The notes beneath the pieces were generated by a model. The model saw only the letters and a list, made by a program, of their open reading frames with translations. It made no database searches and was not told the origin of the DNA. A stretch of DNA of 64,000 bases from Prolixibacteraceae bacterium (lineage in GTDB: Bacteria; Bacteroidota; Bacteroidia; Bacteroidales; Prolixibacteraceae), in NCBI GenBank assembly GCA_003457135.1, contig DMSQ01000014.1:10759-74758 (forward strand), given 5' to 3'. Positions within the stretch are counted from its first letter, which is position 1. Each line of letters starts with the position of its first letter. Made by a program: the position numbers and the translations under genes. Shown here piece by piece: positions 10,761 to 29,456 of this stretch.

Positions 10761-11035
10761 TCAGTATTTCGTTCGCCAAGACTTTTTAATGTATTTCGGG
10801 TATTTCAATAGAATGCGGTCAATGTCGGATGGGTAGATATCTGTCAGGTTCATTTCGGACATTACCTTCTGAAGCGTGGAAACGATATTCCAAGCTGCTG
10901 GCAAGCTTCGACCTTTGAAAGTGGTGAAATTTTTCTACCTTCATTCTCTGCGATCTCTGCACGAACAATAGCCTTTAGTTCTTCCCTGAACTGTTCGAGT
11001 GTTATTCCCTGTAAAATGATTATTGGTTCATCCAT
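10761..11035 (-). pseudogene. Frameshifted excisionase-like HTH gene
   Basis: MDEPIIILQGITLEQFREELKAIVRAEI...SKVEACQQLGISFPRFRR* (stop 10862-10864) continues in another frame as VMSEMNLTDIYPSDIDRILLKYPK...*. Confidence 0.55.
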
Positions 11036-11150
11036 GATTATTGAATTTGAATTTCAAGTAAACACGAATTTTAGGAAACAAGGTTACAATGGGGTTAGTA
11101 CTACTGAGATCATAGATTCAATGGGTAGAACACAGAAATTTTGCAATCTT

Positions 11151-11516
11151 TTAGTATTGTGACCTCCATAGTTTTTTAATATCGGCCCCAGTATAGAATT
11201 TGCGACCATTAGCCTTTCGAATGCTGCACCTGATTAATCCTTCATTGGAGTATCTATTAAGAGTATTTCTACTAATATTCAGAATTTTACTTGCTTCCCT
11301 AGTTGTAAATCGGCCAGTATCAGAAATTTGTGGTTCATCTGAAATAAATCCAGTAACTTTTTTACTTGATTTTTCAGGTTGAATACTTCCTTGCATTTTT
11401 GCCAACTCCTCTCTGATTGATTCCTTAATGAAAGGCTTTAGCTTAACCAGTAAGGCTTCTGCAAGTTCTTCACAACTGAAACCTTCGGCAATTATATTGG
11501 GATTGTCCATGTACAT
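11151..11516 (-). CDS. Excisionase/MerR-like HTH protein
   Basis: FTTREASKILNISRNTLNRYSNEGLI...RKFYTGADI. Confidence 0.8.
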   Translation of the reverse strand: MYMDNPNIIAEGFSCEELAEALLVKLKPFIKESIREELAKMQGSIQPEKSSKKVTGFISDEPQISDTGRFTTREASKILNISRNTLNRYSNEGLIRCSIRKANGRKFYTGADIKKLWRSQY

Positions 11517-12098
11517 TCATTCTTTAGGTTTTACAAAGCCTATCGGATTCCGGGACTGGATGGGTGATTGATCAATGCTCTTTTGTTTACTGGCAAGTTC
11601 TGAGAGTGCCATGTAAATATCATCGAAAACAACCTGATTATCTTCGCTCAAATCGTTCATGGCTTTAAGATTTTCTTCGCTCTGTTCCTCCAATGCTTTG
11701 ACGTGCAGCCAGAGTTCCTTTATTTCAGCAGAAACAGCCGATTGAGTAAGCAGATAATTTCTGACCGCGACAAAAGCCCTCATAATGTTGATATTTATCT
11801 CAATGGCTTTTTCGCTTCGTAATACACTCGATAGCATGGCAACACCTTGTTCAGTAAATGCAAACGGCGCATAACCTGTTGATAGTGATGTGGAGATCAC
11901 AGATTGTGATCTTAAAAAGGTAACTTCATTTTTGGTTAGTTCAAACATGAAATCTTCGGGAAACCGGTTCATATTACGTCTTACTGCCTGTTTTACTGCC
12001 CGTGTTTCTACCTGATACATTTCTGCAAGGTCGAAGTCCAACATTACACGCTGTCCCCGAATCTCGTATATCTTCTTTTGGATGACTGATAGTTCCAT
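11517..12098 (-). CDS. ORF6N-domain protein (phage antirepressor-like)
   Basis: IYEIRGQRVMLDFDLAEMYQVET, RFPEDFMFELT, PFAFTEQGVAMLSSVL. Confidence 0.9.
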   Translation of the reverse strand: MELSVIQKKIYEIRGQRVMLDFDLAEMYQVETRAVKQAVRRNMNRFPEDFMFELTKNEVTFLRSQSVISTSLSTGYAPFAFTEQGVAMLSSVLRSEKAIEININIMRAFVAVRNYLLTQSAVSAEIKELWLHVKALEEQSEENLKAMNDLSEDNQVVFDDIYMALSELASKQKSIDQSPIQSRNPIGFVKPKE

Positions 12099-12102
12099 AA
12101 AA

Positions 12103-12345
12103 CTATTCTTTTGATACTTTCAATTTTGTACCACAATTCGGGCAAGTAAATTCATTAGTCTTGGCCGGTTCGAATAACTCGGCAATAGGAACGTCCAAAG
12201 CATTGGCAATTTTCTGAAGCGTATCAGTGGTTGTATTACTTCCATTAATGATTCTGCTCAATGCCGGTGCCTGAACATCCATTCTTTTTGCAACATCGGC
12301 AATTGTTAACCTTTTTTCTTTTGCAATTTCTTTTACTCTTAACAC
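12103..12345 (-). CDS. XRE-family HTH regulator with C-terminal CxxC ribbon
   Basis: LTIADVAKRMDVQAPALSRIING, TLQKIANALDV, CPNCG. Confidence 0.85.
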   Translation of the reverse strand: MLRVKEIAKEKRLTIADVAKRMDVQAPALSRIINGSNTTTDTLQKIANALDVPIAELFEPAKTNEFTCPNCGTKLKVSKE

Positions 12346-12463
12346 TTGTGTTATTTTTTTAGTTTTATCAAAAGTACAAAATATTTGTATGTAGGTGCAA
12401 GTATTTCATGTAAAATAACTCATTGGGTTATTTTTTAATGAAATAAATTTGGATTGTATTAAA

Positions 12464-12796
12464 TTATGACTTTGATACTTTGCCTTTGACCTCTTCCAGA
12501 AGCTTTTCAAGATCCTGCACGGACTGGATACGGTAAATTGTACCGTTAAAATCTATGAACCCGGATAGTTCTGATTGGCCCGGGTGTGAATAGTTGAACA
12601 ATTCACCTATCTCAACTTTAAGAGCTTCAGCAATTATCTGCAAAGTTTCAACTTTAGGATTATTGTTTTCGTTCAGGATATTGCTGATTGAATTTCTGGA
12701 TAAACTATGTCCGTTCGCCTCTATCCGGTCTTTCAATATTTCAATGTTGACCTTTCGGTCTGCCATTAACTGTTTCAAATTATCAATCCAATTCAT
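12464..12796 (-). CDS. XRE-family HTH repressor (cI-like position)
   Basis: SRNSISNILN, NPKVETLQIIAEALKV; ATG at 12796, divergent from the small-gene operon. Confidence 0.8.
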   Translation of the reverse strand: MNWIDNLKQLMADRKVNIEILKDRIEANGHSLSRNSISNILNENNNPKVETLQIIAEALKVEIGELFNYSHPGQSELSGFIDFNGTIYRIQSVQDLEKLLEEVKGKVSKS

Positions 12797-12917
12797 AACA
12801 AGTATATTTTTCATCAAATGTAAGAAACTTGAATGTAATAACAAGTATATTTTTCAAATAAATCATTTTATAACAAATATATTTTCTGTTTCATTTGTTT
12901 ATAACAAATATACTTTG
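12795..12917 (+). promoter_or_regulatory. Four operator-like repeats ATAACAARTATAYTTT
   Basis: Copies at 12795, 12838, 12870 and 12901 between divergent genes. Confidence 0.75.
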
Positions 12918-12950
12918 TATCATTACGGAATATTACAAAACAAAGTTGTT

Positions 12951-13271
12951 ATGAAAGCAAAATTAAATTTCAGGTCTGTGGTTTTCAAAAGGGCTTACAT
13001 TTTAGTAAAGCAAACCGGATGCAACTTCTCGTCAGCATTAACTCAGGCATGGAAACGCTACCGGGATTTCAAGGCCAGAACTATTGAGCAACTAACCAAA
13101 CAGATTAACGGTTTTGACTACTATTACCAAATGTGTGACGATGGCAGGGTTTATCGTTACTGGTCGGCAATTCAGAAAGAAATCAGGGAACAAATTCAAA
13201 CTCTTCCGGGCAGCTTCATTTCTGCCATTGCACAGCATTTTAATTCAAATCAAATAAAGTCATTCATTTAA
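12951..13271 (+). CDS. Hypothetical protein (phage/MGE-type)
   Basis: ATG at 12951 (MKAKLNFRSVVFKRAY...ALTQAWKRY); the longer track start overlaps the repressor gene. Confidence 0.7.
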   Translation: MKAKLNFRSVVFKRAYILVKQTGCNFSSALTQAWKRYRDFKARTIEQLTKQINGFDYYYQMCDDGRVYRYWSAIQKEIREQIQTLPGSFISAIAQHFNSNQIKSFI

Positions 13272-13290
13272 TCACTTAAAAATCACAGTT

Positions 13291-13563
13291 ATGGAAAGTA
13301 AAAAATCAACCCCTAAGAAAAACACGGTAACCGTTACAATTCCGTGTTCAAATTCTCATTCAATCCCGGTCTTTGAAGATTTCATGGCTGAAGCTCAAAG
13401 ACGCTTTCAGGTCGAATGTGATGCAAAAAACAAGGCTTATAGCTTTATCCTATCAACTGGACGGCTTCGGGAATTCGAAGAGTTTTGCAAATTAACTCAA
13501 GGACTGAATCATCATGGCAATTGCATTGATCATTTGGCTCTAATTATCCCTAATCAGCAATAG
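13291..13563 (+). CDS. Hypothetical protein
   Basis: 90 aa, AKNKAYSFILS motif, TTAAAA-N9-ATG leader. Confidence 0.7.
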   Translation: MESKKSTPKKNTVTVTIPCSNSHSIPVFEDFMAEAQRRFQVECDAKNKAYSFILSTGRLREFEEFCKLTQGLNHHGNCIDHLALIIPNQQ

Positions 13564-13579
13564 TTTAAAACCCATCATC

Positions 13580-13741
13580 ATGGAAAAGTACAAACAATTA
13601 CTTGCTGGTCAAATTGAATCAATCCTATCGGCTTACAATCCCTACCTTGACAAATTAAATGAAGGTGAAAAAAAGGATTTGGAGGACATAACCAAGTGTC
13701 TTCAAATACTTAAGTCAGACAGTGATTATACAGCTTCTTGA
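13580..13741 (+). CDS. Small hypothetical protein (53 aa), not in the ORF track
   Basis: MEKYKQLLAGQIESILSAYNPYLDKLNEGEKKDLEDITKCLQILKSDSDYTAS; same TTAAAA-N9-ATG leader as neighbours. Confidence 0.6.
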   Translation: MEKYKQLLAGQIESILSAYNPYLDKLNEGEKKDLEDITKCLQILKSDSDYTAS

Positions 13742-13840
13742 TATTCTTTACGAATACTTTCATTACTGACCTTTGGGATAATCTCACAGGTCTGATTATA
13801 TCAAACTCAAATAATATTTATTCATTTAAAACCAATCAAA

Positions 13841-14161
13841 ATGGAAAACACAACTTTTTTAAACCCAAGAATTGAAGGCAACAAACTTATCGTTGACGTT
13901 AAAACTGAATTTTCAGACGGACCTTTAATCAAACACATGACCCTACAACTTTCTCCTTTGTATGAAATGATAGTTGAAGCAGAAACAAGCAGGTTCGCCA
14001 ACGCGGCTAGCGGACTAATTTTTGCTTATACCAGACTTGCCTCTTTCGCCCTTAACAGTGATAGTGAATTTATAAAGAAAGAATTACTTGGAGCCGACGA
14101 TGGCGATCTTTACTATTTGAATATGTTATCTCAATTGCTTAGGCGCATGGATGTACTGTAA
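13841..14161 (+). CDS. Hypothetical protein
   Basis: 106 aa, TTAAAA-N9-ATG leader, followed by a terminator-like hairpin. Confidence 0.7.
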   Translation: MENTTFLNPRIEGNKLIVDVKTEFSDGPLIKHMTLQLSPLYEMIVEAETSRFANAASGLIFAYTRLASFALNSDSEFIKKELLGADDGDLYYLNMLSQLLRRMDVL

Positions 14162-14182
14162 TCTATTCGAACTATTCTGCTG

Positions 14183-14218
14183 AAAAGGCCTGTTGGGTAA
14201 TTCCGGCAGACTTTTTTT
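14183..14218 (+). terminator. Intrinsic terminator candidate
   Basis: GC/GU stem followed by T7 just after the 13841-14161 gene. Confidence 0.5.
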
Positions 14219-14407
14219 ATTTTCATTGACAAGGTGAGCTCAAAATTGAGCTCACCGTTTTCTCGCTCCACAATTTTATCGAACGAAACTGCTCGATGTG
14301 TGTTTCCCTCACTTCTTGGATTTAAAATGAAAATCGGGTCCGATGCTTCACAGTGTTACAAATAATGAGCACCGGCACCAGGTCTTATCTAATGAATGCA
14401 ATATTTA

Positions 14408-17400
14408 CTACTTCCCAAAATATTTGTACTTGCTTACAAACCCTCTGCGTAATCCTAAGATTTGAAGATCGATTACTTTATTTTCATCTTCGTCCGTTGT
14501 CGTCTTTTTCAAGTCCAAAAGCGATTTTATTTCATCATTTGTCATCTCGAAATCAATCAAAAAATCCCTTTGATTTTCTGATATTTCAGGGATTCTATTT
14601 GGATCATTGGCTTGATTTCGTCTATCATCTTCAAACTTCAATTCCTCTGCCTTGTTTGCAACCTCCCTGTATTCGTCATACATGAACCCGGTGTACTTCT
14701 TGTGGTAATATGTTTGAAGGATCGGAATACTTGTTGGGTCAAATCCTTCAATTTTATGTTCCCTGTCCTTTATCTGTTTGTCGAGATCATCAACGGTTTT
14801 CAGAATCATGTAATTGGCAGCATCTAAAACGGTCTGGCCTGGGCCACCGGTGTATGACTTCAGAATATATTCTATTTTAGCAGGATTCCAGTCGTATTTT
14901 TCAAGGATACGTTTGCCTATTATCGTTTTTGTCCCAAGTTCCGGATCACCACCGCCCTGTTTGTACAACCAATTAGTGAATGAAACGATCATCGCATTGG
15001 TATTATTGAAGTGCATCTGGCTGTCAGCAAATTTCCCCTGTTGACTTTTAAGAAATGGTTCCCGGAATATTGGTCTCTTTCTGTAGTCCTCGTTAGTCGA
15101 AATATCCATCAATGGCTTAATTGCGCTGAATAAAGAACCTGCAACCTTTGGGGCAGATAGTTTACCTTGCTTATTGAATATTCCACTAATTTCAACAGGA
15201 GATAATGCCTGAGTGAAAACTTCTGCCATATCGAAAGACATTTGTTCCGTGGATATCCTGCCGGTGTGATGTTCATACATTGCAACACCAAGCGCATTCC
15301 AAACTCGGTATCCCTGAGCTAATGGGATACTCACATAGTTATCCTTCCATCCAATGACAGTATTGTTGTACATGGTGTACTTGTTGATTTCGGCATAATC
15401 CTTATCATCATCGTCACCATTTAATAAATCCCATAGATACCTAGATAATAAGCCCTGGATTACAAGAGAAACAGCATTTATAGCAAAGTACCGGAAAGTA
15501 TGGTTCTTTGCTAAATCGTATTGTTTTGCGGCTCCTTGAATGGAAGCATTGAAGAACATGATGAACGATCCGATTGTGGCAGAATATTCACCCCTTGTAT
15601 CGAAGTTTGTAGTTATTTCCTTTGCTTCGTTGATTGACATGATAATAGATTCACCTCTTTCTCTTGCCATGGCATAAGCTGTAAACCTGGCAATACTTTC
15701 ACCGTATCCGGCCAATCCTTCCATTAACCTTAAAGCATTTAAAGGATTTGCAAGTCTGGCAAGACTGCTTGATCCACTTCTTTTGATGTGTCTAATATAT
15801 CTTTCAACCTTTGATTTTACTTCATCAAGTGGCATCAAATAAGCTTGTCCGGTTGGTCCACCATTCAGGTTATACTCATCGTATAATTTTTTCCACTTCT
15901 TTTCTTTCTCTGTCTTTGGCTCAACACCCATAAAATCAAGTAATTTATCACCTGTTTTGCTTGAATTGCGCCAAGCATCATTCAGCATGTTTGAAGCGAG
16001 AAAACGGGCTGCAACCGTGTATTTAGCCTGAAATTTCAGACTGTCTTTGAATCCCCTTTGAATAAACATTGTTTTTGCGCCAGTCTTGAAGTCACGATAT
16101 GTATTTGAGGTTATAAATGATGGCCTCCATGATGTGACACTCCTTGACATGAAGCGCGTAATGCTTGCAATCGGAAGGTACTTAAAGTTGATTGACTGAG
16201 AATAATTGTCACCGTTTATTGCGTTTGAAATAGCAGGGTCTTTAAAAATCATCTTAAATCGATTTCCATCCACATAAACATCAACCTCATGTTGTTTTCG
16301 CAAGTATGTTGGTTTTTCGCTCATTGGGTTCGATATTCTTGACGAAGAAAATGTATATCCGCTTCCTTCCAAAACACTCTTAAAACCAAGCTCGGTTTTC
16401 TTCGTATTACCTTCCTCGTCGGTGTTCATCAGGAATACTTTATGGTCAGGCTTATCGTTACCCTTTTGATCCTTAAAAGTGCCTGAAGTTTCATAAACCA
16501 CTTCCGTTACCATGCCCAACTTATCGGTCATGTAATTCATCTGGGACATCTCGAACAAGTCTTTCCTGTTACTGTTCAGCTTGATCAAATTGTAAGCTGA
16601 CCTCTTGGCCCTATTCTTTTCTCCCCACATTATCGCGGATGTTGCCATTTGATAAATGTATGCAATAGGATCATCTGCCATACTTTCACGGCCTTCTGTT
16701 TTTTCATCCCCGGAAAACTCGCTTCGTTTTTCTGATTTTTCGTAGTCAAGCTGTATTTCTTCAGCTATTGGCTCAAATCCTCTCAATGGAACGTAGTATT
16801 TCCAATTTCTTGCTACTACTGCATTAAGAGAATCCTGAGTGTACTTGCCGTATTCCACCCAATAACGGGCAATTTTTCCGGTGCATTCGCGTGTATTTGT
16901 CCAAAGTTCATCAATCAACTCCCGTGGAATTTCGCTTTCGAATTTTTCATAGATTGCTATTGCCTGGTCGTCAGTCATTCCGGAGAAGTTATTTCCCTTT
17001 TTACCCAGAGAACGGAACCACCTATTACGTTCTGGGGCATGTCTGGCGATCATGTATTCTTGGACTTTTTTATAGGCTTCTTCGTTTTTTAAATCTTTCT
17101 TTTCCAGTATGGCCATGACATTCTCTACCGATCTAAGCATTGGATTGAATAGCTTCTTTTCAAAATGAGTTTTCTGTCCCATCTGTCTGGAACTTTTCTG
17201 ATTCACAGCAAGGAAGACGTTCGCGTAATCCGGAACTTTTAAATCAAATTTTTCAAGTAGTATTTTGATGGCAGTATTGCCATTAATGAAGCGAGAAACA
17301 AAGCGGTCTGTTTTAGTTCTTACTTTCTGGGGCATTCTTTTTTGTTTGACACGGACAGATGCTGCTTTAAGAAGAGAAGATAACGGCTCTTGACCTTTCT

Positions 17401-20400
17401 TGAAGTTAACACGAGAATCCGTGCTATCTAATTCTTGATTCGATTCAGGAGTGTTTATTCTTGAATCTTCTTCGTTGGCTGAATTGGTTCCGTTCCTATC
17501 CAAAACCCGTCCTGATCTGTCTTTAGCCTGTATCCGTCCATCGGTCTGATCCTGATATTCTCTTCCATCATTAGGATTTCCTTCGCTTCCATCAATGTTA
17601 CGTTGTTCTCCTTTGCGTAGGCTTCCGATTCCTCTCTGACTACTACTGGAATGCTCATTTTTTTGAAAATTAGATTGAACAGAAACACGAATAATTTCAA
17701 TAAGTTGCCCTTCAGTTAAAAGACTCCCGTTAAAGTTATACAATTTTGAAAGTAGAGCTCGAAGATATTTAATCGTTTCATTCCAAATAGATTTTACTTC
17801 TGGGTTTAAATCTTCTCTGGAAACGATCTTCTCAGACAAATTCGCCAGCAATTCTTCGCCTCTTACCTGCTTTGTACTTCCGGCATACTCTCTGTTAACC
17901 CAATCGAATAGTTCCTTAATTTCCGGCTTAATTTCGGCAATTTTTCTGAAGCTGTCATAAACCTGAACCATAAGTAAATTTCGCTCATTTGTCGGCAAAA
18001 TGTTTCTCAATCCGTTATGAACCCCATTTTCATGTATCCATATTGCAATAAGGTGGTCAATTGATTTTATCTTATCGGCCATGACGTAAACTTTGTCATT
18101 ATACCAAACGCCATAAATACCAAGTGAAAATAAACTGTGATTTCTTATACCTGCCGGGAGTTCATCCACTGATTGAACAAGAATAACTGGTGCCGCACTT
18201 GGCGCAATAGATTGAAGTTCATCAATCTTGGATTGCATTTCTTCAACCGTAGGAGTTATCCTAAATCTGTTGAACGAAAATTCATTGCTTGTTTGATCAT
18301 TTTGTAAACTATTTGTATTTTCAAAAAGCGCATCGAATGGATTATCAGTATAAAGAATTTTTTGATACGCTTCAACCTCTCCAATACCCATCTGTCCGTT
18401 CAGTGCTTTTGATACAATTTCACCGGGTATTAGTTCAGATAACTGTAGATCGGATTGGTCAAGTTCTGTCTTTCCTGTGATTAGCTGATAGGCTTTCTGT
18501 TTATCGGTTAATTGAGGAATTGAGGTGTCCACATTCTCGACCGGACTGTCCATGGTCTTTTGTACAGGTTGTTGTTTAGGAACAATCTTGATGCTCCTTA
18601 CTTCAGTCTTAAAGGTAGGTTTCTTGTATTTGTTTTCAGCCGGTATTTCAACCTGAACACGTTCGGCCACAACTTCAAAGTCCGAGTTGTCCTTAAATTC
18701 TTTTTCAAGTGCTGGTAATGCTTTTTCAAGTGATACACGTTCGTTCGGGACCACTTCGTCAAACCCTTCATTTTCGATAATGTCAATAACAGTACTGCCA
18801 AATTTCTGAGGGGTGATTTGGCGCTCAACCGGCCCAGTCGAATTCTGGTCATTTTGTGTCAATCCATTATCCCCGCTCGGTGTCGTTGTAACAGATTCGT
18901 TATTTTGTGGCTGATTTTGTATTGAATTTATAATTTTTTCTTTTTCCCATCTTTGAACTTCTTCAATAGGAACCCATACAGCATTCTCGTTTTCATCAAG
19001 CCATGCCTCCTGTTTTCCATCATCTGATAATCCTTCACCGTTTGGTATCCTGATAAGTGTCTTACCATTAAACACCATTTTGTTTTCGTTTGATTGCTCC
19101 TGGTTAACGGCTTCGGTCTGGTCAAATGAAGCAAGCCCGGCCTGAACATATTCGTCTTTGGTCGTTTCCTGTTTCTCAACAACCATTTCAGGGCTGACCA
19201 TCTTGGTTAGTTTACCATCTTCAAAAGGCTGTTTATCCAATCTTCTGACCATTACAGCCCCGGAAATATCCCCTTGTTCGCCTGAAACAATATAAACAGG
19301 CGTATTTTCTTCAGTTCCTAAAGTAGTTAGTTTGCCTACTACAATGGTTCCGGTTGTTTGGTGTGCCAGTTCGTTGGCTTCAGTAGTTATTTCGGATTCT
19401 TTAGATTGTCGCGGATTGAGTTTATTTACACCCATAACCGCTAATGCTCCACCTGAGCCAAACGCCCCACCGCCCATTCCGTAAACAAATGATTTTGCAG
19501 CGTCTTTTGTTGGTTCAAAAACAGTATTTGCGCCAGTAAAATAGTCAATTGTATTTGTGGCTAGGCTATTGGCATATTCTTCAATTCCTTCGGCTACCGG
19601 GCCAATAATAAGGCCGAAACGATCAAACATTTTAGTAGTCCATGCAGAAATTCCTTTTTGAAGAACTTCTTTTGCTACCTTTTCGCCAGATTTAGCCACC
19701 AATCGTCCAATATATTTTCCCATCGGAACAGAACCAAGTAATTCTGTGGCCGCTTCAGATGTTCCAGAAAGTGCCGAATTGGTAAGTTTCTGAAATTCGC
19801 CCATGTTTTTCTGAGCAATAAAATCAGCCTTTTGTTTTTCTGTAAATATTTGAGGTAATTCTGGATTGTCAAGCTGTTCGTATTTTCCGGCTGCTGAAGT
19901 TGCCCCAATTGCACCAAGCCCGGCTGCTCCTCCGCCCATTGCCATTATCATGTATGGTAAACTCTTTGCGCCCTGAAGGAATATGTCACCCGCAACGGCT
20001 CCATACTCACCTTTCTTCCATAGGTCCGTAAAATCTTCGCCATTATATCGGTCTGACTTCGCTTCAAGCTTCTTTGCTTCTTCTTTGGCTGATACTTTTA
20101 GTTCTTCAGCTGCGCTTGTGGCTGGATTAGTTTGAAGGAATGAATCAACAAATACTTTTCTTTCTTCATCACCAATTCCTAATTCCTTTGTTTTATAATT
20201 CAGGTATGAACGCATTGGAAGATTTTGTAACGCCCCAACGTTTCCGGCTATGTCAACTGAAGTTCCGGCAAATCCCTGCATTGCATCACCAAGCCAAGTA
20301 CTCCAAAATCCTGAATCTTCTTTTGTTTTTGGTTGCTCGGTAGTTGTATTTTGTGCAACAACCTGATTTTTTTCTTCCGTATAATTTTCAGGGAATTTCT

Positions 20401-20614
20401 GCCTTAACTCTATTTGCATGAACGTTAAAGGCTGTTCTGTTTCCGGTTGTATTTGATCAAATGAAACCTGATCTCTGTATTCAGGGTATTTTTCAACCAT
20501 CTTTTTTGCAAGAGTAAGATCATCTACATCTTTATAATCAGGGTATTTGGCTTTAACCCTACTTGAAAATTCCTGAAAATTTACCGGTTTTTGTGCAATA
20601 TCCTGTTCTGTCAT
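14408..20614 (-). CDS. Large polyvalent/ejection-like protein (2068 aa) with HExxxH metallopeptidase-like and C-terminal LPD38-like regions
   Basis: Intact 6.2-kb ORF; Gly/Ala-rich hydrophobic segments in the N-terminal fifth; IHENGVHNGLRNIL at 18017-18034; KYYVPLRGF; FFNASIQG...NNTVIGWKDNYVSIPL. Confidence 0.7.
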   Translation of the reverse strand: MTEQDIAQKPVNFQEFSSRVKAKYPDYKDVDDLTLAKKMVEKYPEYRDQVSFDQIQPETEQPLTFMQIELRQKFPENYTEEKNQVVAQNTTTEQPKTKEDSGFWSTWLGDAMQGFAGTSVDIAGNVGALQNLPMRSYLNYKTKELGIGDEERKVFVDSFLQTNPATSAAEELKVSAKEEAKKLEAKSDRYNGEDFTDLWKKGEYGAVAGDIFLQGAKSLPYMIMAMGGGAAGLGAIGATSAAGKYEQLDNPELPQIFTEKQKADFIAQKNMGEFQKLTNSALSGTSEAATELLGSVPMGKYIGRLVAKSGEKVAKEVLQKGISAWTTKMFDRFGLIIGPVAEGIEEYANSLATNTIDYFTGANTVFEPTKDAAKSFVYGMGGGAFGSGGALAVMGVNKLNPRQSKESEITTEANELAHQTTGTIVVGKLTTLGTEENTPVYIVSGEQGDISGAVMVRRLDKQPFEDGKLTKMVSPEMVVEKQETTKDEYVQAGLASFDQTEAVNQEQSNENKMVFNGKTLIRIPNGEGLSDDGKQEAWLDENENAVWVPIEEVQRWEKEKIINSIQNQPQNNESVTTTPSGDNGLTQNDQNSTGPVERQITPQKFGSTVIDIIENEGFDEVVPNERVSLEKALPALEKEFKDNSDFEVVAERVQVEIPAENKYKKPTFKTEVRSIKIVPKQQPVQKTMDSPVENVDTSIPQLTDKQKAYQLITGKTELDQSDLQLSELIPGEIVSKALNGQMGIGEVEAYQKILYTDNPFDALFENTNSLQNDQTSNEFSFNRFRITPTVEEMQSKIDELQSIAPSAAPVILVQSVDELPAGIRNHSLFSLGIYGVWYNDKVYVMADKIKSIDHLIAIWIHENGVHNGLRNILPTNERNLLMVQVYDSFRKIAEIKPEIKELFDWVNREYAGSTKQVRGEELLANLSEKIVSREDLNPEVKSIWNETIKYLRALLSKLYNFNGSLLTEGQLIEIIRVSVQSNFQKNEHSSSSQRGIGSLRKGEQRNIDGSEGNPNDGREYQDQTDGRIQAKDRSGRVLDRNGTNSANEEDSRINTPESNQELDSTDSRVNFKKGQEPLSSLLKAASVRVKQKRMPQKVRTKTDRFVSRFINGNTAIKILLEKFDLKVPDYANVFLAVNQKSSRQMGQKTHFEKKLFNPMLRSVENVMAILEKKDLKNEEAYKKVQEYMIARHAPERNRWFRSLGKKGNNFSGMTDDQAIAIYEKFESEIPRELIDELWTNTRECTGKIARYWVEYGKYTQDSLNAVVARNWKYYVPLRGFEPIAEEIQLDYEKSEKRSEFSGDEKTEGRESMADDPIAYIYQMATSAIMWGEKNRAKRSAYNLIKLNSNRKDLFEMSQMNYMTDKLGMVTEVVYETSGTFKDQKGNDKPDHKVFLMNTDEEGNTKKTELGFKSVLEGSGYTFSSSRISNPMSEKPTYLRKQHEVDVYVDGNRFKMIFKDPAISNAINGDNYSQSINFKYLPIASITRFMSRSVTSWRPSFITSNTYRDFKTGAKTMFIQRGFKDSLKFQAKYTVAARFLASNMLNDAWRNSSKTGDKLLDFMGVEPKTEKEKKWKKLYDEYNLNGGPTGQAYLMPLDEVKSKVERYIRHIKRSGSSSLARLANPLNALRLMEGLAGYGESIARFTAYAMARERGESIIMSINEAKEITTNFDTRGEYSATIGSFIMFFNASIQGAAKQYDLAKNHTFRYFAINAVSLVIQGLLSRYLWDLLNGDDDDKDYAEINKYTMYNNTVIGWKDNYVSIPLAQGYRVWNALGVAMYEHHTGRISTEQMSFDMAEVFTQALSPVEISGIFNKQGKLSAPKVAGSLFSAIKPLMDISTNEDYRKRPIFREPFLKSQQGKFADSQMHFNNTNAMIVSFTNWLYKQGGGDPELGTKTIIGKRILEKYDWNPAKIEYILKSYTGGPGQTVLDAANYMILKTVDDLDKQIKDREHKIEGFDPTSIPILQTYYHKKYTGFMYDEYREVANKAEELKFEDDRRNQANDPNRIPEISENQRDFLIDFEMTNDEIKSLLDLKKTTTDEDENKVIDLQILGLRRGFVSKYKYFGK

Positions 20615-20616
20615 AG

Positions 20617-21807
20617 TTAAAATCCTCCCTTTGGAACGCCTTTTAAATTGTATGGATTCTCTTGAAAAAATGACGGTACTTTTTTTGAATAATCAACTTT
20701 CTGTGTCACATGATTTTCTTCTAATTGATTATTATGGAACAATCCAAGAGGATCGGGTTTTGTTGCGTTTGGTGCTGATTTTTGTTCGTTTTGTTTGAGA
20801 ACTTCAGGAGATGGGGTTGTTGAATTTTCTTCCATCTCAATATCTGCCCGTACCAAATCATCGTCTTTTATGTCTGGACTAAGTGATGTAACGAATTGAC
20901 CCGGAATAGGCTTGTTGTACTTATTGAGCTTAGGCGTATCGATGAACATATTTTTAAACCGGGTCTTCAATAGTTCGCTATTCTTTAATGCCCTTTCCCT
21001 TCTGAATGAATATTCGGCAGGTGAAATATTGTGAGTGGCGTTTTTTGTTTGAATTATCTTTGGACGATCTGCTTTGTTTTCCGATCCTGTTTTGTTTGCC
21101 CTGATCAATGCTGCTTTGCCAAGAGTTTTTTTGTATTCTTCGTCAATATCCTGTTGTTTTTGCTTAATCTTAAACTCAGCTTGCCATTTAGCCAAGTCTT
21201 GTGCATTCTTAACCTTTCTGAAGGCTTCGTTTGCTGCCTGCACCCGGTTCCGGTATTCACGTTCTGTTTCTTTGTCCAATCGTGCTATCCCAAACTGAAT
21301 GTCACTTAACTTTCTTTGGTAATCCCGGTATTTGAAGGCTTTATTTTCCTGATCGTGTTTGTCGAGAACATTTTCATAAGACTGATAGAGTGCCGGTGAA
21401 ATCTGGTCCGGTGCTTTTCTTCTCACATTTGCGCCAAGTCCAAGAGAAAGTGCATCGCCAAGAATACCAACGCCACGCCCAAACTGATTAATCCTGCCCA
21501 TGCGCCTCAAACGGTCAATTTTATCCTGATCAATCTTTGGTGCTTCTTCCCGGGTAGACAAAAACCTTTTCATGATTTTTTCTTCCGGTGAAAGTTTTCG
21601 TTCTGATACCATTGCTGAATTAACCGGATTGATAGGTGCTTCTGATTCCTGTAACCTCTGGTCAGTAGGATCAACCTGATAGTTTGACTGAACTTGCTGA
21701 GCAGGTCTTGATGGGATAAACAGTTCTTTCCCGTCCTCCGGGCTGTCGAATCTTCTTTGAGGATAATCAATTAGGTAATCTTCTGTTTGGAATTCGGGTG
21801 TTGGCAT
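20617..21807 (-). CDS. Putative ejection/pilot-like protein (396 aa)
   Basis: Coiled-coil-like, amphipathic GVGILGDALSLGLG segment; stop 2 nt before the large gene. Confidence 0.5.
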   Translation of the reverse strand: MPTPEFQTEDYLIDYPQRRFDSPEDGKELFIPSRPAQQVQSNYQVDPTDQRLQESEAPINPVNSAMVSERKLSPEEKIMKRFLSTREEAPKIDQDKIDRLRRMGRINQFGRGVGILGDALSLGLGANVRRKAPDQISPALYQSYENVLDKHDQENKAFKYRDYQRKLSDIQFGIARLDKETEREYRNRVQAANEAFRKVKNAQDLAKWQAEFKIKQKQQDIDEEYKKTLGKAALIRANKTGSENKADRPKIIQTKNATHNISPAEYSFRRERALKNSELLKTRFKNMFIDTPKLNKYNKPIPGQFVTSLSPDIKDDDLVRADIEMEENSTTPSPEVLKQNEQKSAPNATKPDPLGLFHNNQLEENHVTQKVDYSKKVPSFFQENPYNLKGVPKGGF

Positions 21808-21979
21808 ATCTTAATTTTTATAGCTTATGTGTATGCAATATTAATAATATAAATCATTAATATTCTTGTATTACAGTAGATTATATCTATCATTTAAAGT
21901 GATACTTTAAGTATAATTTAATTATCAATAATGATTTATCTGGAATTAATAGTCTTGTCAACATCAACAAAAGAAGTAA

Positions 21980-22414
21980 TCAATTCAAATCGATATTCAA
22001 GTCATAACCCGGAAATTCAGCAATTACTAGATTTAAAACCATAATGTCAGTGAATGGAAATCCATAAATATTATTAATAAATTTTCGAAGAAGTTGGAAA
22101 TACTTATGGTTATCAAGGCAATTTTCATTAAGTATTAAATGACAGCCAAGGGTAATTAACAAAAATCTTAATAGCTTAAACCTTGCTTCTGGAAGGCATA
22201 AATCATTTTCATAAGCTGTTATTTTTAGCGATTCCTTGTACTTATCTGCGATCAAAAATTTAAATAGCATTTTTATTTCATCAAGATTGTAGAACTGATA
22301 TAGACCAGAAATAGCACTTATATCGAAAAGTAAAGGCTTAAATATTTTTAATTCCATATCGTATAGGCAATGAATTTCAGCATCATTAACCTTAATTATT
22401 TTTTGATTGTCCAT
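21980..22414 (-). CDS. Hypothetical protein
   Basis: 144-aa AT-rich ORF in the same operon orientation. Confidence 0.6.
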   Translation of the reverse strand: MDNQKIIKVNDAEIHCLYDMELKIFKPLLFDISAISGLYQFYNLDEIKMLFKFLIADKYKESLKITAYENDLCLPEARFKLLRFLLITLGCHLILNENCLDNHKYFQLLRKFINNIYGFPFTDIMVLNLVIAEFPGYDLNIDLN

Positions 22415-22433
22415 CTGGTTAAATAATTTAATG

Positions 22434-23018
22434 TTAAGAATTAGGATCTCTTTTTAGAATCTTCTGTTCAATTTCATTGAATTTTGCCACTGTTTTGAGA
22501 AATGTCCGTATAACAAGTCCGGGATGAAAAGTAAACAGATCATCCCCGGCCTCCACAATATTCGCGAACGCCTGCCACATTTCGTGTTCAGTTATCTTCC
22601 CAACATTCCTTTCCTGAATAGCCAATCCTAAGTGTATGATATAGCCAATATTGCATTTCAACATGGCCACTTCAAAGCCAGTGTGAGCATACCAGTGAGC
22701 AAAACTGTTAAGGACCCGTTTTTCAAAAGGGCAAATTGAAACTGCAATCTGGAAATTCTGATATTCTTTGATTGATTCATTGGCAGTTTCTTCAATGGAA
22801 GTCATAAATTGATATGGATTTGTATCAGCCTTGAAAAGAAGATTGATAAGATTTGAAGTATTTTGAGCTTCAGCTAAGGTTGTAGGTTTGGCACATTGGG
22901 CAGTTATTACAGCCTTGTCGAAATAATGTGAGGCCGATATTGCAAAGTATGTTTTGGTTCTCTGGAATTGTCTTTTGAGCTGATTCAATTCTTTTGTGTT
23001 GATTTCTATCGGGTTCAT
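22434..23018 (-). CDS. Hypothetical protein, paralog B
   Basis: 81/194 identities, ungapped, to 23074-23676. Confidence 0.8.
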   Translation of the reverse strand: MNPIEINTKELNQLKRQFQRTKTYFAISASHYFDKAVITAQCAKPTTLAEAQNTSNLINLLFKADTNPYQFMTSIEETANESIKEYQNFQIAVSICPFEKRVLNSFAHWYAHTGFEVAMLKCNIGYIIHLGLAIQERNVGKITEHEMWQAFANIVEAGDDLFTFHPGLVIRTFLKTVAKFNEIEQKILKRDPNS

Positions 23019-23073
23019 AATGAATGTTTTAATTTTGATTGTTTTTTAAAATGTATAGATTATCCTTCTCTGT

Positions 23074-23676
23074 TCAATCGTTTTCTGTTCCATATTCAAA
23101 TAGTGTTCTTAAATAGATTTTATCTTCAATCTCAACCAGCTTATTTGAAGCCTGTGTAAAAGCTCGTAATATCCACATCGGCTTGAAACTAAAGAACCTA
23201 TTTCCTGCTTTTGAAACGGAATCAATACACTCAAGCAGTTCTTTTTTAGAGATCATTTCCAAATAATGTTGTTGAATCGCAATTCCGCAATAAAGAATGT
23301 AATTCATATTACACTTGAGCATGGAAGCCTCCCAGCCAGTATTCACGTACCATTTGCAAAAACTTTCGAGTATCCGTTTGTCCGTTGACCAGTTTTGTAG
23401 TACCAATTTGTACACGTTGTATTCTTCAATGGACTTATTTGAAGTGTCCTCAATCGAGTTCATAAATTCAAAAGGCGTTGTTTCAGCTTGGAATAAAAAG
23501 TTAATAAAGTCTGACGTTTTTTGGGCTTCCGGCAGTGTTGTTTTTTTTGCACAATGGCTGCTGATAATTGCATGATCAAGACTGTGGGCGGCTATCAAGG
23601 CCTGAAAGGTTTTTATTTTTGCATGGTTTTTTCGGATTTGAACAAGTTCTTTTTGAAGTTGTTTAATTTCGTTCAT
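23074..23676 (-). CDS. Hypothetical protein, paralog A
   Basis: Paralog of 22434-23018; TTAAAA-N9-ATG leader. Confidence 0.8.
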   Translation of the reverse strand: MNEIKQLQKELVQIRKNHAKIKTFQALIAAHSLDHAIISSHCAKKTTLPEAQKTSDFINFLFQAETTPFEFMNSIEDTSNKSIEEYNVYKLVLQNWSTDKRILESFCKWYVNTGWEASMLKCNMNYILYCGIAIQQHYLEMISKKELLECIDSVSKAGNRFFSFKPMWILRAFTQASNKLVEIEDKIYLRTLFEYGTEND

Positions 23677-23717
23677 ATGAATTGTTTTTAAATGATTTGT
23701 ATAAAATATTGATTGTG

Positions 23718-25109
23718 TTAGAATGGATCCTTACCTGTCGGTTCGATGCGATGGTCGGGGGAATAATGGTTGATATCGCTTATTGGATTATCACTGAATC
23801 CTGTCATTTCTTCATTGGCGAATATTTCAAAGTCGCCACAAGTTCCCCTCCGGTTCTTTGCGATGGAAATATAGAACCGGTTATCTGTATCGTTTCTCCA
23901 TGGGAATATCACTATGTCAGCATCCTGCTCGATGGCTCCCGATTCCCGAAGGTGGTGCAACTGTGGTTTTTCTCCGGCTGCTGCCCGGTTGAGCTGCGAA
24001 AGGCAAATGATAGGTATGTTTTCAGCAAGTGCGATTTCCTTTAGAGTTCGGCTGATTTCGGAAATTTGCTGTTCTCTGATCGCTTTCTTGTCAATAGGCT
24101 TAACAAGCTGCAAATAGTCTAAAATAATTAAATCGCACCGTCCGGCCTTTCTGTTCCTGATCGTATTGGACTTTATGCGGGATGAGGTCAACCCAGCATA
24201 GTCATTCCAGATTATAGGCAACCGTTCAAAATTGATCAGTGAAGCGTTTATTGCGTTCCAATCCTTATCGTTTATGTAGCCGTCCCTCAGCCGGGTCCTG
24301 TTTATGGAAGATTCGCCACTAATCATTATTCTCATCAGGTCGGATGACTTCATTTCAAGGCCGTAAAAATTAACCCAGCTTCCGGCTCTGGCTGCCATCT
24401 TTGCAAAGTGAAGTGCAAGGCTTGTTTTTCCAATTCCGGGGCGTGCAGCGACAATAACTAGGTTTGTGCTGCGCCATCCTCCTGTGGCATTGTTCAGGGT
24501 TTTAAGTCCTGTTGTGATACCGGGTTGTTTTCCATTTTTAGCCTGAACACAATCTTTCTCAATCTCTTTGATGGTTTCCCGGATTACGTTGAAATGCGAT
24601 TGGCCAGTGTTTGCTCCTAGAGTTGAATCCTCAATTGCTGATATTTTTTGTTTTACTGAGATTAATAGATCTTCAATGTCTGTTCCTTCTTCATAAGCCT
24701 CACTAATTGTTTCTGAGCCTATCCTGATCAATTCTCTTTGTGCATAAAGTTGCGCTATGATACGGGCGTGAGCTTCGATATGTGCGGCCGATGCAACTTT
24801 GCTTGTTAGCTGGGTAATGTAAAGCGGTCCTCCTATCGTTTCCAGTTGGTTTGTAGTAATCAACGCCCTGGTTACAGTAAGTAAATCAATCTGTCTATTT
24901 GCATCTGCCAGCGATTTTACGACATCAAATATTATCTGATGCTCATATTTGTAAAAGCTATTAGAGGTTAAAACTCCACTTACTTTATGTATTGCTTCAG
25001 CTTCTAACATTAAGGATCCTAAAACGGCCTCTTCCATATCTATGGCTTGGGGTGGAATTTTACCATATTGAGCATTAATTTCATCTATTTGGTTTTTCAT
25101 CTTGTCCAT
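23718..25109 (-). CDS. dnaB: Replicative DNA helicase (element-encoded)
   Basis: PPQAIDMEEAVLG, Walker A AARPGIGKT, DYLQL, LSQLNR, LRESGAIEQDAD. Confidence 0.95.
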   Translation of the reverse strand: MDKMKNQIDEINAQYGKIPPQAIDMEEAVLGSLMLEAEAIHKVSGVLTSNSFYKYEHQIIFDVVKSLADANRQIDLLTVTRALITTNQLETIGGPLYITQLTSKVASAAHIEAHARIIAQLYAQRELIRIGSETISEAYEEGTDIEDLLISVKQKISAIEDSTLGANTGQSHFNVIRETIKEIEKDCVQAKNGKQPGITTGLKTLNNATGGWRSTNLVIVAARPGIGKTSLALHFAKMAARAGSWVNFYGLEMKSSDLMRIMISGESSINRTRLRDGYINDKDWNAINASLINFERLPIIWNDYAGLTSSRIKSNTIRNRKAGRCDLIILDYLQLVKPIDKKAIREQQISEISRTLKEIALAENIPIICLSQLNRAAAGEKPQLHHLRESGAIEQDADIVIFPWRNDTDNRFYISIAKNRRGTCGDFEIFANEEMTGFSDNPISDINHYSPDHRIEPTGKDPF

Positions 25110-25783
25110 TCTTTGGGTGTTTTGATTTCAATTTTTGTTTTTGGGTTGCCACCTGTATTGCTTCGGGCTATCCATCCGGTAACAGATTTCTTCCAATTTG
25201 CCATTTTGTTTTTACCCACCATCCAGTTTATTGATCCGTAATGAGCATCAAATTTTACAGCTTCTGTTTCTGGGTTCAGGGTTAAACCTTTTTCTTTGAT
25301 ACTTTCTGAAAAATATGATTGAATTTCTAAGAGAGAAGGAGGGGTAAAACGATCAGTTTTCACCTCTCTTTTATTATTCTCATTATTCTCATTATTTAAT
25401 TGGTGTCGTTTGCGTTTCACTTCCGTTTCATTTGCGTTTCGGTCATTCTGGTAACTGTCATAATTACAGACCTTTATCCGTGTCGTTTTTTGTTCGGGTT
25501 TTAGTACAATCATTGAACACGCTTCTAGGAGCTTAAAGAACCTTCTGACCTTCGATTTATTCCAGTTAAAAATCTTTGCCCATGTATCCAAACTGTAAAG
25601 TTTTTCTCCTCTGTTACAGCATAAAACTGCATTTCCAATATTGACCGTTTCATCCTGATGGTTAACTTCCATGAGAATAGTTAACCATGCTTCAAATTTT
25701 GTGAAAGGGCGACCTTTAGGAAATATCCAATGTTTTCTGATTGCACGATAAACAGAGATCCAGCCTTCGTTAATATCATTCAT
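25097..25783 (-). CDS. Phage-type replication initiator (replisome-organiser/lambda-O-like)
   Basis: GWISVYRAI...EAWLTIL...RGEKLYSLDTWAKIFNWNKSKVRRFF winged helix; C-terminal FTPPSL...NWKKSVTGW; overlaps the dnaB start; ATG at 25783. Confidence 0.8.
   Translation of the reverse strand: MNDINEGWISVYRAIRKHWIFPKGRPFTKFEAWLTILMEVNHQDETVNIGNAVLCCNRGEKLYSLDTWAKIFNWNKSKVRRFFKLLEACSMIVLKPEQKTTRIKVCNYDSYQNDRNANETEVKRKRHQLNNENNENNKREVKTDRFTPPSLLEIQSYFSESIKEKGLTLNPETEAVKFDAHYGSINWMVGKNKMANWKKSVTGWIARSNTGGNPKTKIEIKTPKEWTR
25371..25440. repeat. Putative origin inside rep: three 11-bp iterons plus AT-rich tract
   Basis: GTTTGCGTTTC / ACTTCCGTTTC / ATTTGCGTTTC (25408-25440) next to TTATTATTCTCATTATTCTCATTATTTAATT (25371-25401). 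Confidence 0.65.
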
Positions 25784-25982
25784 TGGACTTGTTTTTAAAG
25801 CGATTACACTGATCCAGAGTTCCGGAATAAACCCGAAACCATATTGAAGTTCGGGAAGTGCTGAACCCAAGGGAAACAATTTTATATTCCTTGAACAAGG
25901 GATTAAATAAGACCTTATGGGTGGCAGAAGTTCTGAAAATACGGTTCAAATAGTTTCCTGATGGTTTTGTGGCTGTCAGCAT
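25776..25982 (-). CDS. Small hypothetical protein
   Basis: 68 aa, overlaps both neighbours by 7-8 nt, filling the operon gap. Confidence 0.5.
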   Translation of the reverse strand: MLTATKPSGNYLNRIFRTSATHKVLFNPLFKEYKIVSLGFSTSRTSIWFRVYSGTLDQCNRFKNKSNE

Positions 25983-26476
25983 GGATTACCCTCCTGAAAC
26001 TTTAGATTGTAGAATTTTAAGAACTGCTCGAATGATGTGACAGTGACGGAGATTAGTCCGGCTTCTTCAGTGACTTGTGCGTGGCTTTGAAGATCCCTGC
26101 TGATCCTTATACGAACAGTAATTTCGCCAATGATCGTAGAAATATCAAACATTTCATTGATTCCGTTTTTAATCCAATGGGTTTCAATGATACTCCGCTG
26201 GTGTCCTATTACATTAGTGAATATTGTTTTAGTGGTAATCCTTCGGTTTATTTGTTCGGCCTTGTATCCAGACAATTTGAGAAAGTCAGTTATTGCTTTC
26301 ATCAGCCCGGAAGTTGTATCGTCCCGGTATTCGTCTTTAGCAAGGAAGCGGATAGGAGTGTTTGGTAATCTGATTTTCTTTGCTTCAAATGCCAAGGATT
26401 CAAGATACTTGACAGCATCAGGCTTGACGTATCTCGGCTTTCTTCCCTTTGCTTTTAATTCGGCTGTCTGGTTCAT
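25976..26476 (-). CDS. VRR-NUC/PD-(D/E)xK-like protein, apparently degenerate
   Basis: GLMKAITDFLKLSGYKAEQIN, WIK, DISTII, RDLQSHAQ, SFEQFLKFY; no ExK motif. Confidence 0.5.
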   Translation of the reverse strand: MNQTAELKAKGRKPRYVKPDAVKYLESLAFEAKKIRLPNTPIRFLAKDEYRDDTTSGLMKAITDFLKLSGYKAEQINRRITTKTIFTNVIGHQRSIIETHWIKNGINEMFDISTIIGEITVRIRISRDLQSHAQVTEEAGLISVTVTSFEQFLKFYNLKFQEGNPC

Positions 26477-26805
26477 AGTGAAAGGGATTTAGTTGGTGAG
26501 TCAAACAGACTTAACTGAGCATGTCTTTTAGGAGCTTTTTGGGGATCGGTACTTAAGTACCAAGCCTTGAATCCTGTTTTCTGGCAATCCCTCTTTTCAA
26601 TTTCCCAAAGCATTTCCGCTTTTTCAAGATCGCGCTTGTAACGTGTTATGCATTTCTGGGGTACACCGGTAGCATCAGTCACCATTGAAGCTGTAGCAAC
26701 ATGTTCTTTCAGATAGTGAAATATGGTTTGCAGTTGATTTAAGTGTGTTGTATCTTTGTCAAGTTCTAATTGCAAAGATTTTCTGGAGGTAGTATGTAGG
26801 CACAT
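26473..26805 (-). CDS. Winged-helix-like hypothetical protein
   Basis: TASMVTDATGVPQKCITRYKRDLEK; ATGA overlap with the downstream gene. Confidence 0.65.
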   Translation of the reverse strand: MCLHTTSRKSLQLELDKDTTHLNQLQTIFHYLKEHVATASMVTDATGVPQKCITRYKRDLEKAEMLWEIEKRDCQKTGFKAWYLSTDPQKAPKRHAQLSLFDSPTKSLSL

Positions 26806-26806
26806 A

Positions 26807-27148: not shown

Positions 27149-27254
27149 TGCATCATTATTTAAGTGAATAATGATGCAATGATATTGGGTTGTTATGGTG
27201 CTATTCTTTTGAAGGCAAAGAGGACAAAAAGAAAGGCAAAGCAGGCAAAAAATA

Positions 27255-28199: not shown

Positions 28200-28211
28200 A
28201 CTTATTTAGTT

Positions 28212-29450: not shown

Positions 29451-29456
29451 TGTGTT

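Follow-up and report, generated by a model that had tools for sequence, protein, structure and literature searches.

A 2068-residue LPD38-type polyvalent protein reduced to its conserved modules and carried by an integrative element without recognisable virion genes

Why would a chromosomal element in which no capsid gene can be recognised carry a giant gene of the kind that phages keep among their virion genes? The question is raised by a stretch of 64,000 nucleotides (nt) from a Prolixibacteraceae bacterium (assembly GCA_003457135.1, contig DMSQ01000014.1, positions 10,759 to 74,758 of the forward strand), which was analysed at its full length and is referred to here as the window. An integrative element of about 19-20 kb lies within it, and one gene of this element encodes a polyvalent protein of 2068 amino acids (aa). 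This protein is a minimal, chassis-only member of the LPD38 family that comprises a KYPxY tag, a Gly-rich N-module, an HExxxH module and a C-module. On balance, we lean towards reading it as an entry protein that is delivered in virions and supplied by a satellite-like element. The gene is an uninterrupted open reading frame (ORF) on the minus strand, with an ATG start and without internal stop. An earlier note on this DNA, made from its letters, had described it as intact and had named several features of its product, all of which were found in place by a script. The gene and its parts are as follows.

14408..20614, minus strand: whole gene, an LPD38 polyvalent protein reduced to its chassis (ORF, Pfam LPD38, PHROG matches and 67 homologues)
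20435..20614, minus strand: N-terminal tag, aa 1-60, with two KYPxY copies (identity to the tags of the phage proteins P0030 and Panino)
19355..20317, minus strand: Gly-rich N-module, aa ~100-420, with two Gly/Ala stretches and a PxxEGxEE motif (homologue alignment)
18260..19354, minus strand: acidic, poorly conserved middle region, aa 421-785 (composition; without Pfam match)
17606..18259, minus strand: HExxxH zincin-like module, aa 786-1003 (H861, E862, H866, G868, E921)
17348..17605, minus strand: charged low-complexity linker, aa 1004-1089 (low confidence in the structural model; near-neutral substitution ratio)
14411..17347, minus strand: C-terminal module of about 950 aa, aa 1090-2068, of which LPD38 covers only nt 14771-15406

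The KYP repeat of the earlier note corresponds to KAKYPDYKDVDDLTLAKKMVEKYPEY at aa 21, where two KYPxY copies lie 19 aa apart and are mirrored at the DNA level by a repeat with a spacing of 57 nt (family D13). The two Gly/Ala stretches, AMGGGAAGLGAIGATSAAG at aa 225 and GMGGGAFGSGGALAVMGV at aa 379, are present as described, but their supposed hydrophobicity is weak, with a Kyte-Doolittle maximum of about 1.27 over 19 residues. Judged by sequence, they are glycine-zipper-like rather than classical transmembrane helices. The acidic region is borne out by the composition of aa 401-800, which is net acidic with 71 D+E versus 40 K+R. It is followed by GIYGVWYNDKVYV at aa 832, upstream of HENGVH at aa 861, by the charged linker, and by a C-terminus of 979 aa that is predicted to form mostly long helices.

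LPD38 (PF18857) is the sole significant Pfam family in the protein, matching aa 1737-1948 with E = 1.7e-18 and 67.8 bits, where the gathering score is 27 bits. Each segment searched in isolation against Pfam at E <= 10 gave nothing besides LPD38. PHROGs 14770, 616 and 10691 (function unknown) match aa 1114-2046, in each case with the C-terminal end of a profile of 2800-3900 positions. The proposed assignment to the LPD38-type polyvalent proteins is therefore upheld by the profile searches. Among 5.8 billion proteins, 67 relatives were recovered. Six are close relatives of 1978-3343 aa with 56-78% identity, and the others, of 2100-3600 aa, have LPD38 in common and combine it with varying polyvalent-protein domains, among which LPD1, LPD3, LPD14, ART-PolyVal and InPase were recognised. 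Such domains have been catalogued in phages and conjugative elements (Iyer et al. 2017, PMC5512222). Pattern scans of GTDB found no relatives, partly owing to poor patterns.

The family architecture was derived by searching each segment of the protein against 68 homologues. The Gly-rich module is found at positions ~135-425 in about 40 of them; P220, G228, G229, G237, G382 and G386 are invariant residues of the module. The C-terminal module is C-terminal without exception, and an HExxxHxGLR…EEYxAxLAE block stands just upstream of it in the consensus of a 36-sequence alignment. Phage versions insert at least 1500 aa of variable domains between the N-module and the rest, and the window protein is made of the conserved parts only, plus its acidic middle region. 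No classical effector domain was found in it; the suggestion that it also acts as an effector is thus weak, since the effector domains of its phage relatives are missing. The tag, the Gly module, the HExxxH module and the C-module are each present in other architectures, and only one of the four has a Pfam model. As for the N-module, an identity with LPD14 (PF18827) was considered and is not supported: the window protein has no match, P0003's version alone scores (27.1 bits), and hhalign gave E = 0.05 with a probability of 1%. A sequence search of the PDB with the N-terminal 430 aa returned nothing meaningful.

The distant homologues place this type of protein in phages. A tblastn search of 50,697 phage genomes matched 311 records, in every case by way of aa ~1127-2060 and with about 24% identity. 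They include about 100 Vibrio podophages, Stx-converting phages, Bcep22-like phages of Burkholderia and Ralstonia, and Bacteroides phage BS-TP4, whose gp3 (5391 aa) is encoded directly before the portal gene. Plasmids with an LPD38 match amount to six records only, and all six are typed as non-mobilisable. For two of the podophage giants, presence in the virion is an experimental result. The gp47 protein of phi24B, which combines LPD5, LPD1, LPD38 and MuF-C, is abundant in purified virions by proteomics and is not visible in the cryo-EM shell; its authors propose that it is an encapsidated ejection protein. The gp69 protein of JC1 (4515 aa, LPD38 at 4195-4401) yielded 51 unique peptides from CsCl-purified virions, and gp68 (510 aa), encoded just upstream, is likewise virion-associated. 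The link to phages drawn in the earlier note thus holds, in that the distant homologues are podophage and crAss-like giants encoded within or adjoining virion modules.

Two phage proteins share the N-terminal tag of the window protein. P0030, a protein of 1965 aa on a 76-kb crAss-like phage contig, has LPD38 as its sole Pfam domain, so that bare LPD38 versions exist in true phages too. Its gene follows directly after the muzzle genes (crAss_MUZ, crAss_MUZ_C) and a 549-aa ORF, in the cargo slot. Its N-terminal tag is 49% identical to that of the window protein over 39 aa (E = 3e-10), and the C-modules of the two proteins share 26% identity along about 800 aa. The two proteins are thus alike in size, in carrying only LPD38, in the KYPxY tag and in the mid-sized ORF upstream; P0030 differs in belonging to a complete phage, next to tail muzzle genes, and in lacking the HExxxHxG motif. 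In the cultured Maribacter phage Panino, the giant gene closes the structural block. Its start is 55% identical to the KYPxY tag (E = 1e-12), and its body carries the Gly module too (25% over 295 aa, E = 1e-8). The Panino tag (L028 12001-12276, PP540027.1) is out of frame with the 1842-aa body, the two frames overlapping at about 12153-12276, which may be due to a frameshift, a sequencing error or a programmed shift. In the deposited annotation, the gene start is placed downstream and the product is named a tRNA methyltransferase.

Compared with the LPD38 podophage giants (phi24B gp47, JC1 gp69 / Bcep22 gp75, BS-TP4 gp3), the window protein has the same C-terminal module of about 900 aa with LPD38, and shares with many of them the HExxxH module upstream of it and the Gly-rich N-module. 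A mid-sized ORF lies immediately upstream of the giant in both. The podophage giants are larger, however (2800-5400 aa versus 2068 aa), and bear methylase-helicase, ART, PBECR, InPase, lytic transglycosylase and MuF-C domains that the window protein lacks. They are also encoded in a virion module, whereas the window protein is encoded in a capsid-less integrative element. Taken together, the homology, the proteomics of the relatives and the position in the cargo slot of crAss-like and Flavobacteriia phages indicate a protein type that is delivered in virions.

The earlier note had read the HENGVH segment as part of a zincin-like peptidase. The motif is HExxxH, of six residues, and not the canonical zincin HExxH, which occurs nowhere in the 2068 aa. 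No curated peptidase model of Pfam matches the isolated segment even at E <= 10, and PDB sequence searches with the segment and with its 39-sequence profile found no relative. The module is nevertheless widespread and strongly conserved. When aa 786-1003 were searched exhaustively with phmmer against 1.84 billion representatives, 196 clusters at 50% identity were returned, mostly inside proteins of 2000-5800 aa, with some free-standing copies of 166-330 aa. In 134 aligned, diverged copies, H861, H866, G868 and E921 are conserved in 100%, E862 in 99%, Y910 in 93%, W944 in 91% and W859 in 88%. An AlphaFold2 model from a 39-sequence alignment has a mean predicted local distance difference test (pLDDT) score of 83.9 and a predicted template modelling (pTM) score of 0.77. 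It runs from a helix through a three-stranded sheet to a long helix with H76, E77 and H81 (model numbering) and a later helix with E136, the layout given for the zincin core by Iyer et al. (2017, PMC5512222). The linker that follows is disordered in this model, with a pLDDT below 50 at its start.

Structural comparison gave matches at different levels of significance. In the PDB, the best Foldseek matches of the module are zincins, MATCAP at E = 0.36 and lethal factor at E = 0.74, neither of them significant. In BFVD, matches reach E = 1e-4 to 1e-2 with a probability of 1.0; they fall on pieces of large polyvalent proteins from phages and on 'structural proteins' of phages of Flavobacterium and Tenacibaculum, together with a weak SprT-like match. 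That HExxxH followed by an EE(G) ligand can bind zinc is proven for MATCAP/TMCP and DPP III (M49). The module resembles these gluzincins (PDB 7z5g; MEROPS M49) in its helical HExxxH and its downstream EE-containing helix, the source of a third ligand, and differs in that the fold match to MATCAP is not significant (TM score ~0.3) and sequence similarity is absent. The proposed peptidase is therefore retained in part: the conserved H/E/H/E set and the predicted topology argue for a conserved zincin-like module that is probably metal-binding, and the non-canonical motif without a Pfam peptidase model argues for restraint. Peptidase activity is plausible. Being common and lacking a Pfam model, the module is a good candidate for a new curated family.

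The C-module was likewise modelled. AlphaFold2 on aa 1090-2068 (36 sequences) gave a pLDDT of 70.2 and a pTM of 0.66, with mostly long helices and a beta-hairpin insert at about aa 1354-1457. Foldseek found no relative in the PDB (best E = 0.6), nor did phmmer at E <= 1. A likeness to T7 gp15/gp16, P22 gp16/gp20 and the solved crAss cargo proteins, which the earlier note had envisaged, was not seen by sequence or by structure, the model being one of moderate confidence. What the window protein has in common with the ejection proteins of T7 (gp14/15/16) and P22 (gp7/16/20) and with the virion RNA polymerase of N4 is the proposed role of an internal virion protein that exits with the DNA; similarity in sequence or fold was not detected. 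In the N4 polymerase, the terminal regions serve encapsidation and injection (Iyer et al. 2017, PMC5512222).

Ratios of nonsynonymous to synonymous substitution (dN/dS) were calculated by the Nei-Gojobori method against the orthologues in two related elements, L002 and L004. Over aa 786-2068 minus the linker, the proteins are 92-97% identical and dS is unsaturated (0.13-0.41). The HExxxH module has a ratio of 0.18-0.21 and the C-module one of 0.05-0.10, the latter at a dS of 0.19-0.41; in the linker (aa 1004-1089) it is 0.5-1.3, which is nearly neutral. The C-terminal ~1280 aa of the protein are thus under strong purifying selection, and the selection supposed in the earlier note is confirmed, at 0.05-0.2 over aa 786-2068. 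The Gly module and the middle region are only 29-44% identical to the same orthologues (for the middle region alone, 27-44% to orthologues), with dS saturated, and the Gly module is 69% identical to that of a third element, L020. Being far from L002 and L004 yet near L020, it indicates that the gene is a recombinational mosaic whose N-terminal half has been swapped between lineages. The C-terminus can also be exchanged. In the element L021, a giant of 2834 aa (10001-18505, P0068) has LPD1 and the HExxxH module followed by a different C-terminal module of about 900 aa without LPD38, so the whole C-terminal delivery module is swappable.

The element that carries the gene is bounded on the right by mnmE. 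Its genes, in minus-strand order from that end, are listed below.

10862..30059, both strands: host element, about 19-20 kb (domain scans, synteny, and the core common to L002, L004, L019, L020 and L021)
30060-31454: mnmE, whose stop adjoins the right end of the element
29457-29813: HTH_17 gene, the element gene nearest mnmE
28212-29450: tyrosine integrase
Next, in minus-strand order: 314-aa ORF, HTH_17, 110-aa and 166-aa ORFs
Then: DnaD-like loader, DnaB, tandem 200-aa and 194-aa paralogues, 144-aa ORF, 396-aa partner and the giant
20617..21807, minus strand: the 396-aa partner ORF, with its stop 2 nt before the ATG of the giant
Beyond the giant: four small plus-strand ORFs and two HTH_3 repressor-like genes
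Then: an ORF6N antirepressor (PHROG 4792, E = 1e-33), followed by HTH_17 and a 57-aa ORF

Searches of Pfam, PHROGs and NCBIfam matched no capsid, portal, terminase, tail, lysis, relaxase or Tra family in the element. Packaging or transfer genes, expected next to a gene of the LPD38 class, are not found in it. The rest of the window holds housekeeping genes (ClpB-like, GyrA and 2-oxoacid dehydrogenase genes). At the right end, homology in relatives ends exactly at the mnmE stop codon. In the genome G035, a nitroreductase/LexA-like/imuB/dnaE2 block comes after mnmE, separated from it by 5 kb of other DNA. From this gene order and the mnmE boundary, the island extends at most over 9035-30059, with its left end within 9035-10862; the core common to the related elements starts at 10862. 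The giant is absent from all 60 relatives searched, which include 36 species of the same genus, and in a sample of the phylum only two of 400 other genomes have even a distant relative. The absence from the 36 congeneric species indicates that the element arrived recently, in agreement with the recent acquisition proposed earlier.

Close homologues of the giant lie in similar units that come from other samples and occupy different chromosomal sites: L002 and L003 (Prolixibacteraceae metagenome-assembled genomes, MAGs), L004 and L005, L019, L020 and L021. They represent five related elements with the layout of the window element, so that six of about 17-27 kb are known in all. Each has a DnaB or a primase-helicase, HTH genes, and a partner of 328-406 aa followed by the giant. 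An integrase is present in, or runs off the sequence end of, each related element except L004/L005, where the sequence stops earlier, and L021, where none was recognised. No virion genes are recognisable in these elements. The L021 element occupies the same chromosomal site as that of L002. The 27.2-kb contig L019 (JGI 3300020045) has no genes but those of the element type, and in it the integrase/HTH_17 end runs into the partner-giant end within 1.2 kb. This is how an excised element of the L002 type is expected to look, and L019 may be an episomal or packaged form.

The partner is conserved upstream of the giant in the five related elements with 26-59% identity. Phages have an ORF of 390-550 aa in the corresponding position before their giant. 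A homology between the two was tried and rejected: BLASTP gave E = 0.004 over a low-complexity stretch only, and hhalign a probability of 0.2%. As far as these comparisons of sequence go, the correspondence is a positional analogy and not homology.

How can a protein of a virion-delivered type reside in an element that is unable to build a virion? The two are most simply reconciled by a satellite-like element that is packaged by a helper and brings its own entry protein, and we rate this, by a modest degree, as probable. In phages, the giants lie within the capsid and would exit together with the DNA on infection. The modules common to them are most likely needed for head loading, for passage out through the tail and for acting at the cell envelope, and the variable middle domains of the phage versions, nearly missing in the window protein, are an anti-defence payload. 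Here, the giant and its translationally coupled partner are carried by an integrative, self-replicating, repressor-controlled element of about 20 kb without virion genes. Once induced, the element would replicate, and a Bacteroidota helper phage, either a podophage or a crAss-like phage, would package its DNA. The chassis protein and its partner would be loaded into the particles built by the helper and aid entry into the next cell. The HExxxH module would probably bind a metal and cleave a peptide bond, be it in the giant itself or in an envelope or partner protein. Packaging by a helper, ejection, a role at the membrane or as a channel, and peptidase activity are the parts of this scheme that we infer. 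The element is about one third the size of the 59-64-kb genomes of LPD38 podophages, a proportion that would suit headful packaging of multimers.

Several observations weigh against this reading. With a C-module model of moderate confidence and no relative in the PDB, the ejection or channel role rests on the proteomics of homologues and not on structure. The peptidase motif is non-canonical and lacks a Pfam peptidase model, and the best PDB match by Foldseek has an E of only 0.36. No homology is detectable between the partner ORFs of the element and those of phages, no phage relatives were found for the partner or for the 200-aa and 314-aa proteins, and IMG/VR holds no close relative of the giant. 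Nothing in the element was recognised as a packaging signal, a small terminase or a capsid-remodelling gene, and no att repeats of at least 11 bp were found between the junction zones. A search for a helper in the same genome, which covered two virion families, returned no Terminase_6N, Phage_portal or second LPD38. Finally, several element proteins of unknown fold could hide virion functions.

The window element resembles known phage satellites, such as phage-inducible chromosomal islands (PICIs), P4-like elements and PICI-like elements (PLEs), in its integrase, its own replication module, its repressor/antirepressor control and its lack of virion genes. It differs from them in having no recognised packaging or capsid-redirection gene, and in that one third of its coding capacity is given to a protein of the virion-cargo type. 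A literature search found no paper that describes such a protein in satellites. Tentatively, and with more doubt than we attach to a virion-delivered entry protein as such, these elements may form a new type of Bacteroidota satellite that replaces part of the protein payload of the virion rather than resizing the helper capsid. The KYPxY tag, the N-module and the HExxxH/LPD38 C-module would then be a portable load-and-eject chassis recognised by the heads of helper podophages or crAss-like phages. The satellite would bring along its own bare entry protein and the partner, and helper particles that take it up would lose the effector-laden giant, which would combine entry and helper interference in one gene.

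A protein so reduced could also serve a different purpose. Made in the lysogen, and not delivered to the benefit of the element, it might compete with the effector-laden LPD38 giant of a helper or an infecting phage, or poison its loading or ejection, and so act in superinfection exclusion or helper interference. Helper interference is common practice among satellites. The retention of all conserved chassis modules with the effector domains missing would suit such a device, as would the phage-type repressor and antirepressor genes of the element, and the mosaic N-terminal half agrees with an arms race over the fit to a partner phage. However, a crAss-like phage has a similarly bare version of 1965 aa in its own cargo slot, so bareness does not imply a poison, and the purifying selection found across all 1280 residues of the C-terminal part speaks for a fully working protein and not a decoy; we consider an exclusion or interference device unlikely. 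Still less weight is given to a complete virus or self-transmitting particle with unrecognisably novel structural genes, for example a membrane-vesicle or pleomorphic virion, in which the giant would be the entry or fusion protein. For about ten conserved ORFs of the element no library gave a match, hydrophobic segments of Gly-zipper-like character are conserved in the giant, and L019 consists of element DNA only, all of which such a virus would accommodate. Yet the homologues in recognisable contexts are all in tailed phages, the unknown ORFs other than the giant and the partner are short, mostly of 50-200 aa with a single one of 314 aa, and no packaging ATPase of any kind was found.

The lack of virion genes is also what would be left by a podophage decaying in the chromosome, with the giant as a functionless leftover. 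Against such a remnant stand the intact 6.2-kb frame, the low dN/dS of the C-module (0.05-0.10) at an unsaturated dS of 0.19-0.41, the recurrence of the same compact gene set of 17-27 kb in six elements from different samples and insertion sites, and the recent arrival implied by the absence from 36 congeneric species. The selection and element-family data largely refute it, and the different flanks of the orthologues argue against a near-clonal single insertion; we regard this explanation as very unlikely. Bacteroidota are rich in conjugative transposons, which would favour transfer by conjugation or mobilisation, with the polyvalent protein acting as a pilot that leaves together with the DNA via a type IV secretion system, a role proposed for other polyvalent proteins of conjugative elements. 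Polyvalent proteins do occur in conjugative elements as well as in phages (Iyer et al. 2017, PMC5512222). Neither the element nor the rest of the window has a relaxase, coupling protein or Tra gene, however, the plasmids that match LPD38 are all typed as non-mobilisable, and all other identifiable contexts of the C-module are tailed phages. For want of transfer genes and of a mobilisable LPD38 plasmid, we rejected this explanation, the least probable of those weighed here.

An entry protein supplied by a satellite-like element thus remains the reading that we prefer. What goes beyond the literature that we found is the HExxxH module, as a zincin-like domain without a model, and the capsid-less carrier; the protein as such is a minimal representative of a family already known. 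In many phages of the gut and the sea, giant polyvalent proteins take up as much as a third of the genome, and a stripped-down version under strong selection offers a candidate for the minimal delivery chassis, about 2000 aa long and with four conserved modules. Its tag, its Gly stretches and H861/E862/H866/E921 are targets for mutation. The family of capsid-less, integrase-bearing replicons points to undescribed hitch-hiking elements of Bacteroidota that may carry virion cargo in place of capsid-remodelling genes.

Some further observations concern the element and its surroundings. Between the HTH_17 gene and the mnmE stop, at 29790-29945, several TTGTACC / GGTACAA inverted and direct repeats are candidate binding sites for the integrase or an excisionase at the right end. 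At 12790-12920, direct repeats of 19 nt, TTTATAACAAATATATTTT and variants, occur in four to five copies (families D3, D15). They overlap the 5' end of an HTH_3 gene (12464-12844, minus strand) and extend into the gap before the plus-strand operon of small ORFs, and the cluster resembles an operator or switch region of the element. At 22434-23676, two ORFs of 194 aa and 200 aa are tandem paralogues that both match a single 200-aa ORF of L019 (39% and 48%); neither matches Pfam, PHROGs, NCBIfam or phage genomes. Two copies of mnmE with 82% DNA identity are found on contigs C69 and C65 of the assembly G000, whose estimated contamination is 4%, and this may reflect the binning of another strain or species into the MAG and not a true paralogue. 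In L020, a HicA/HicB toxin-antitoxin pair (9271-9893) lies directly downstream of the giant gene.

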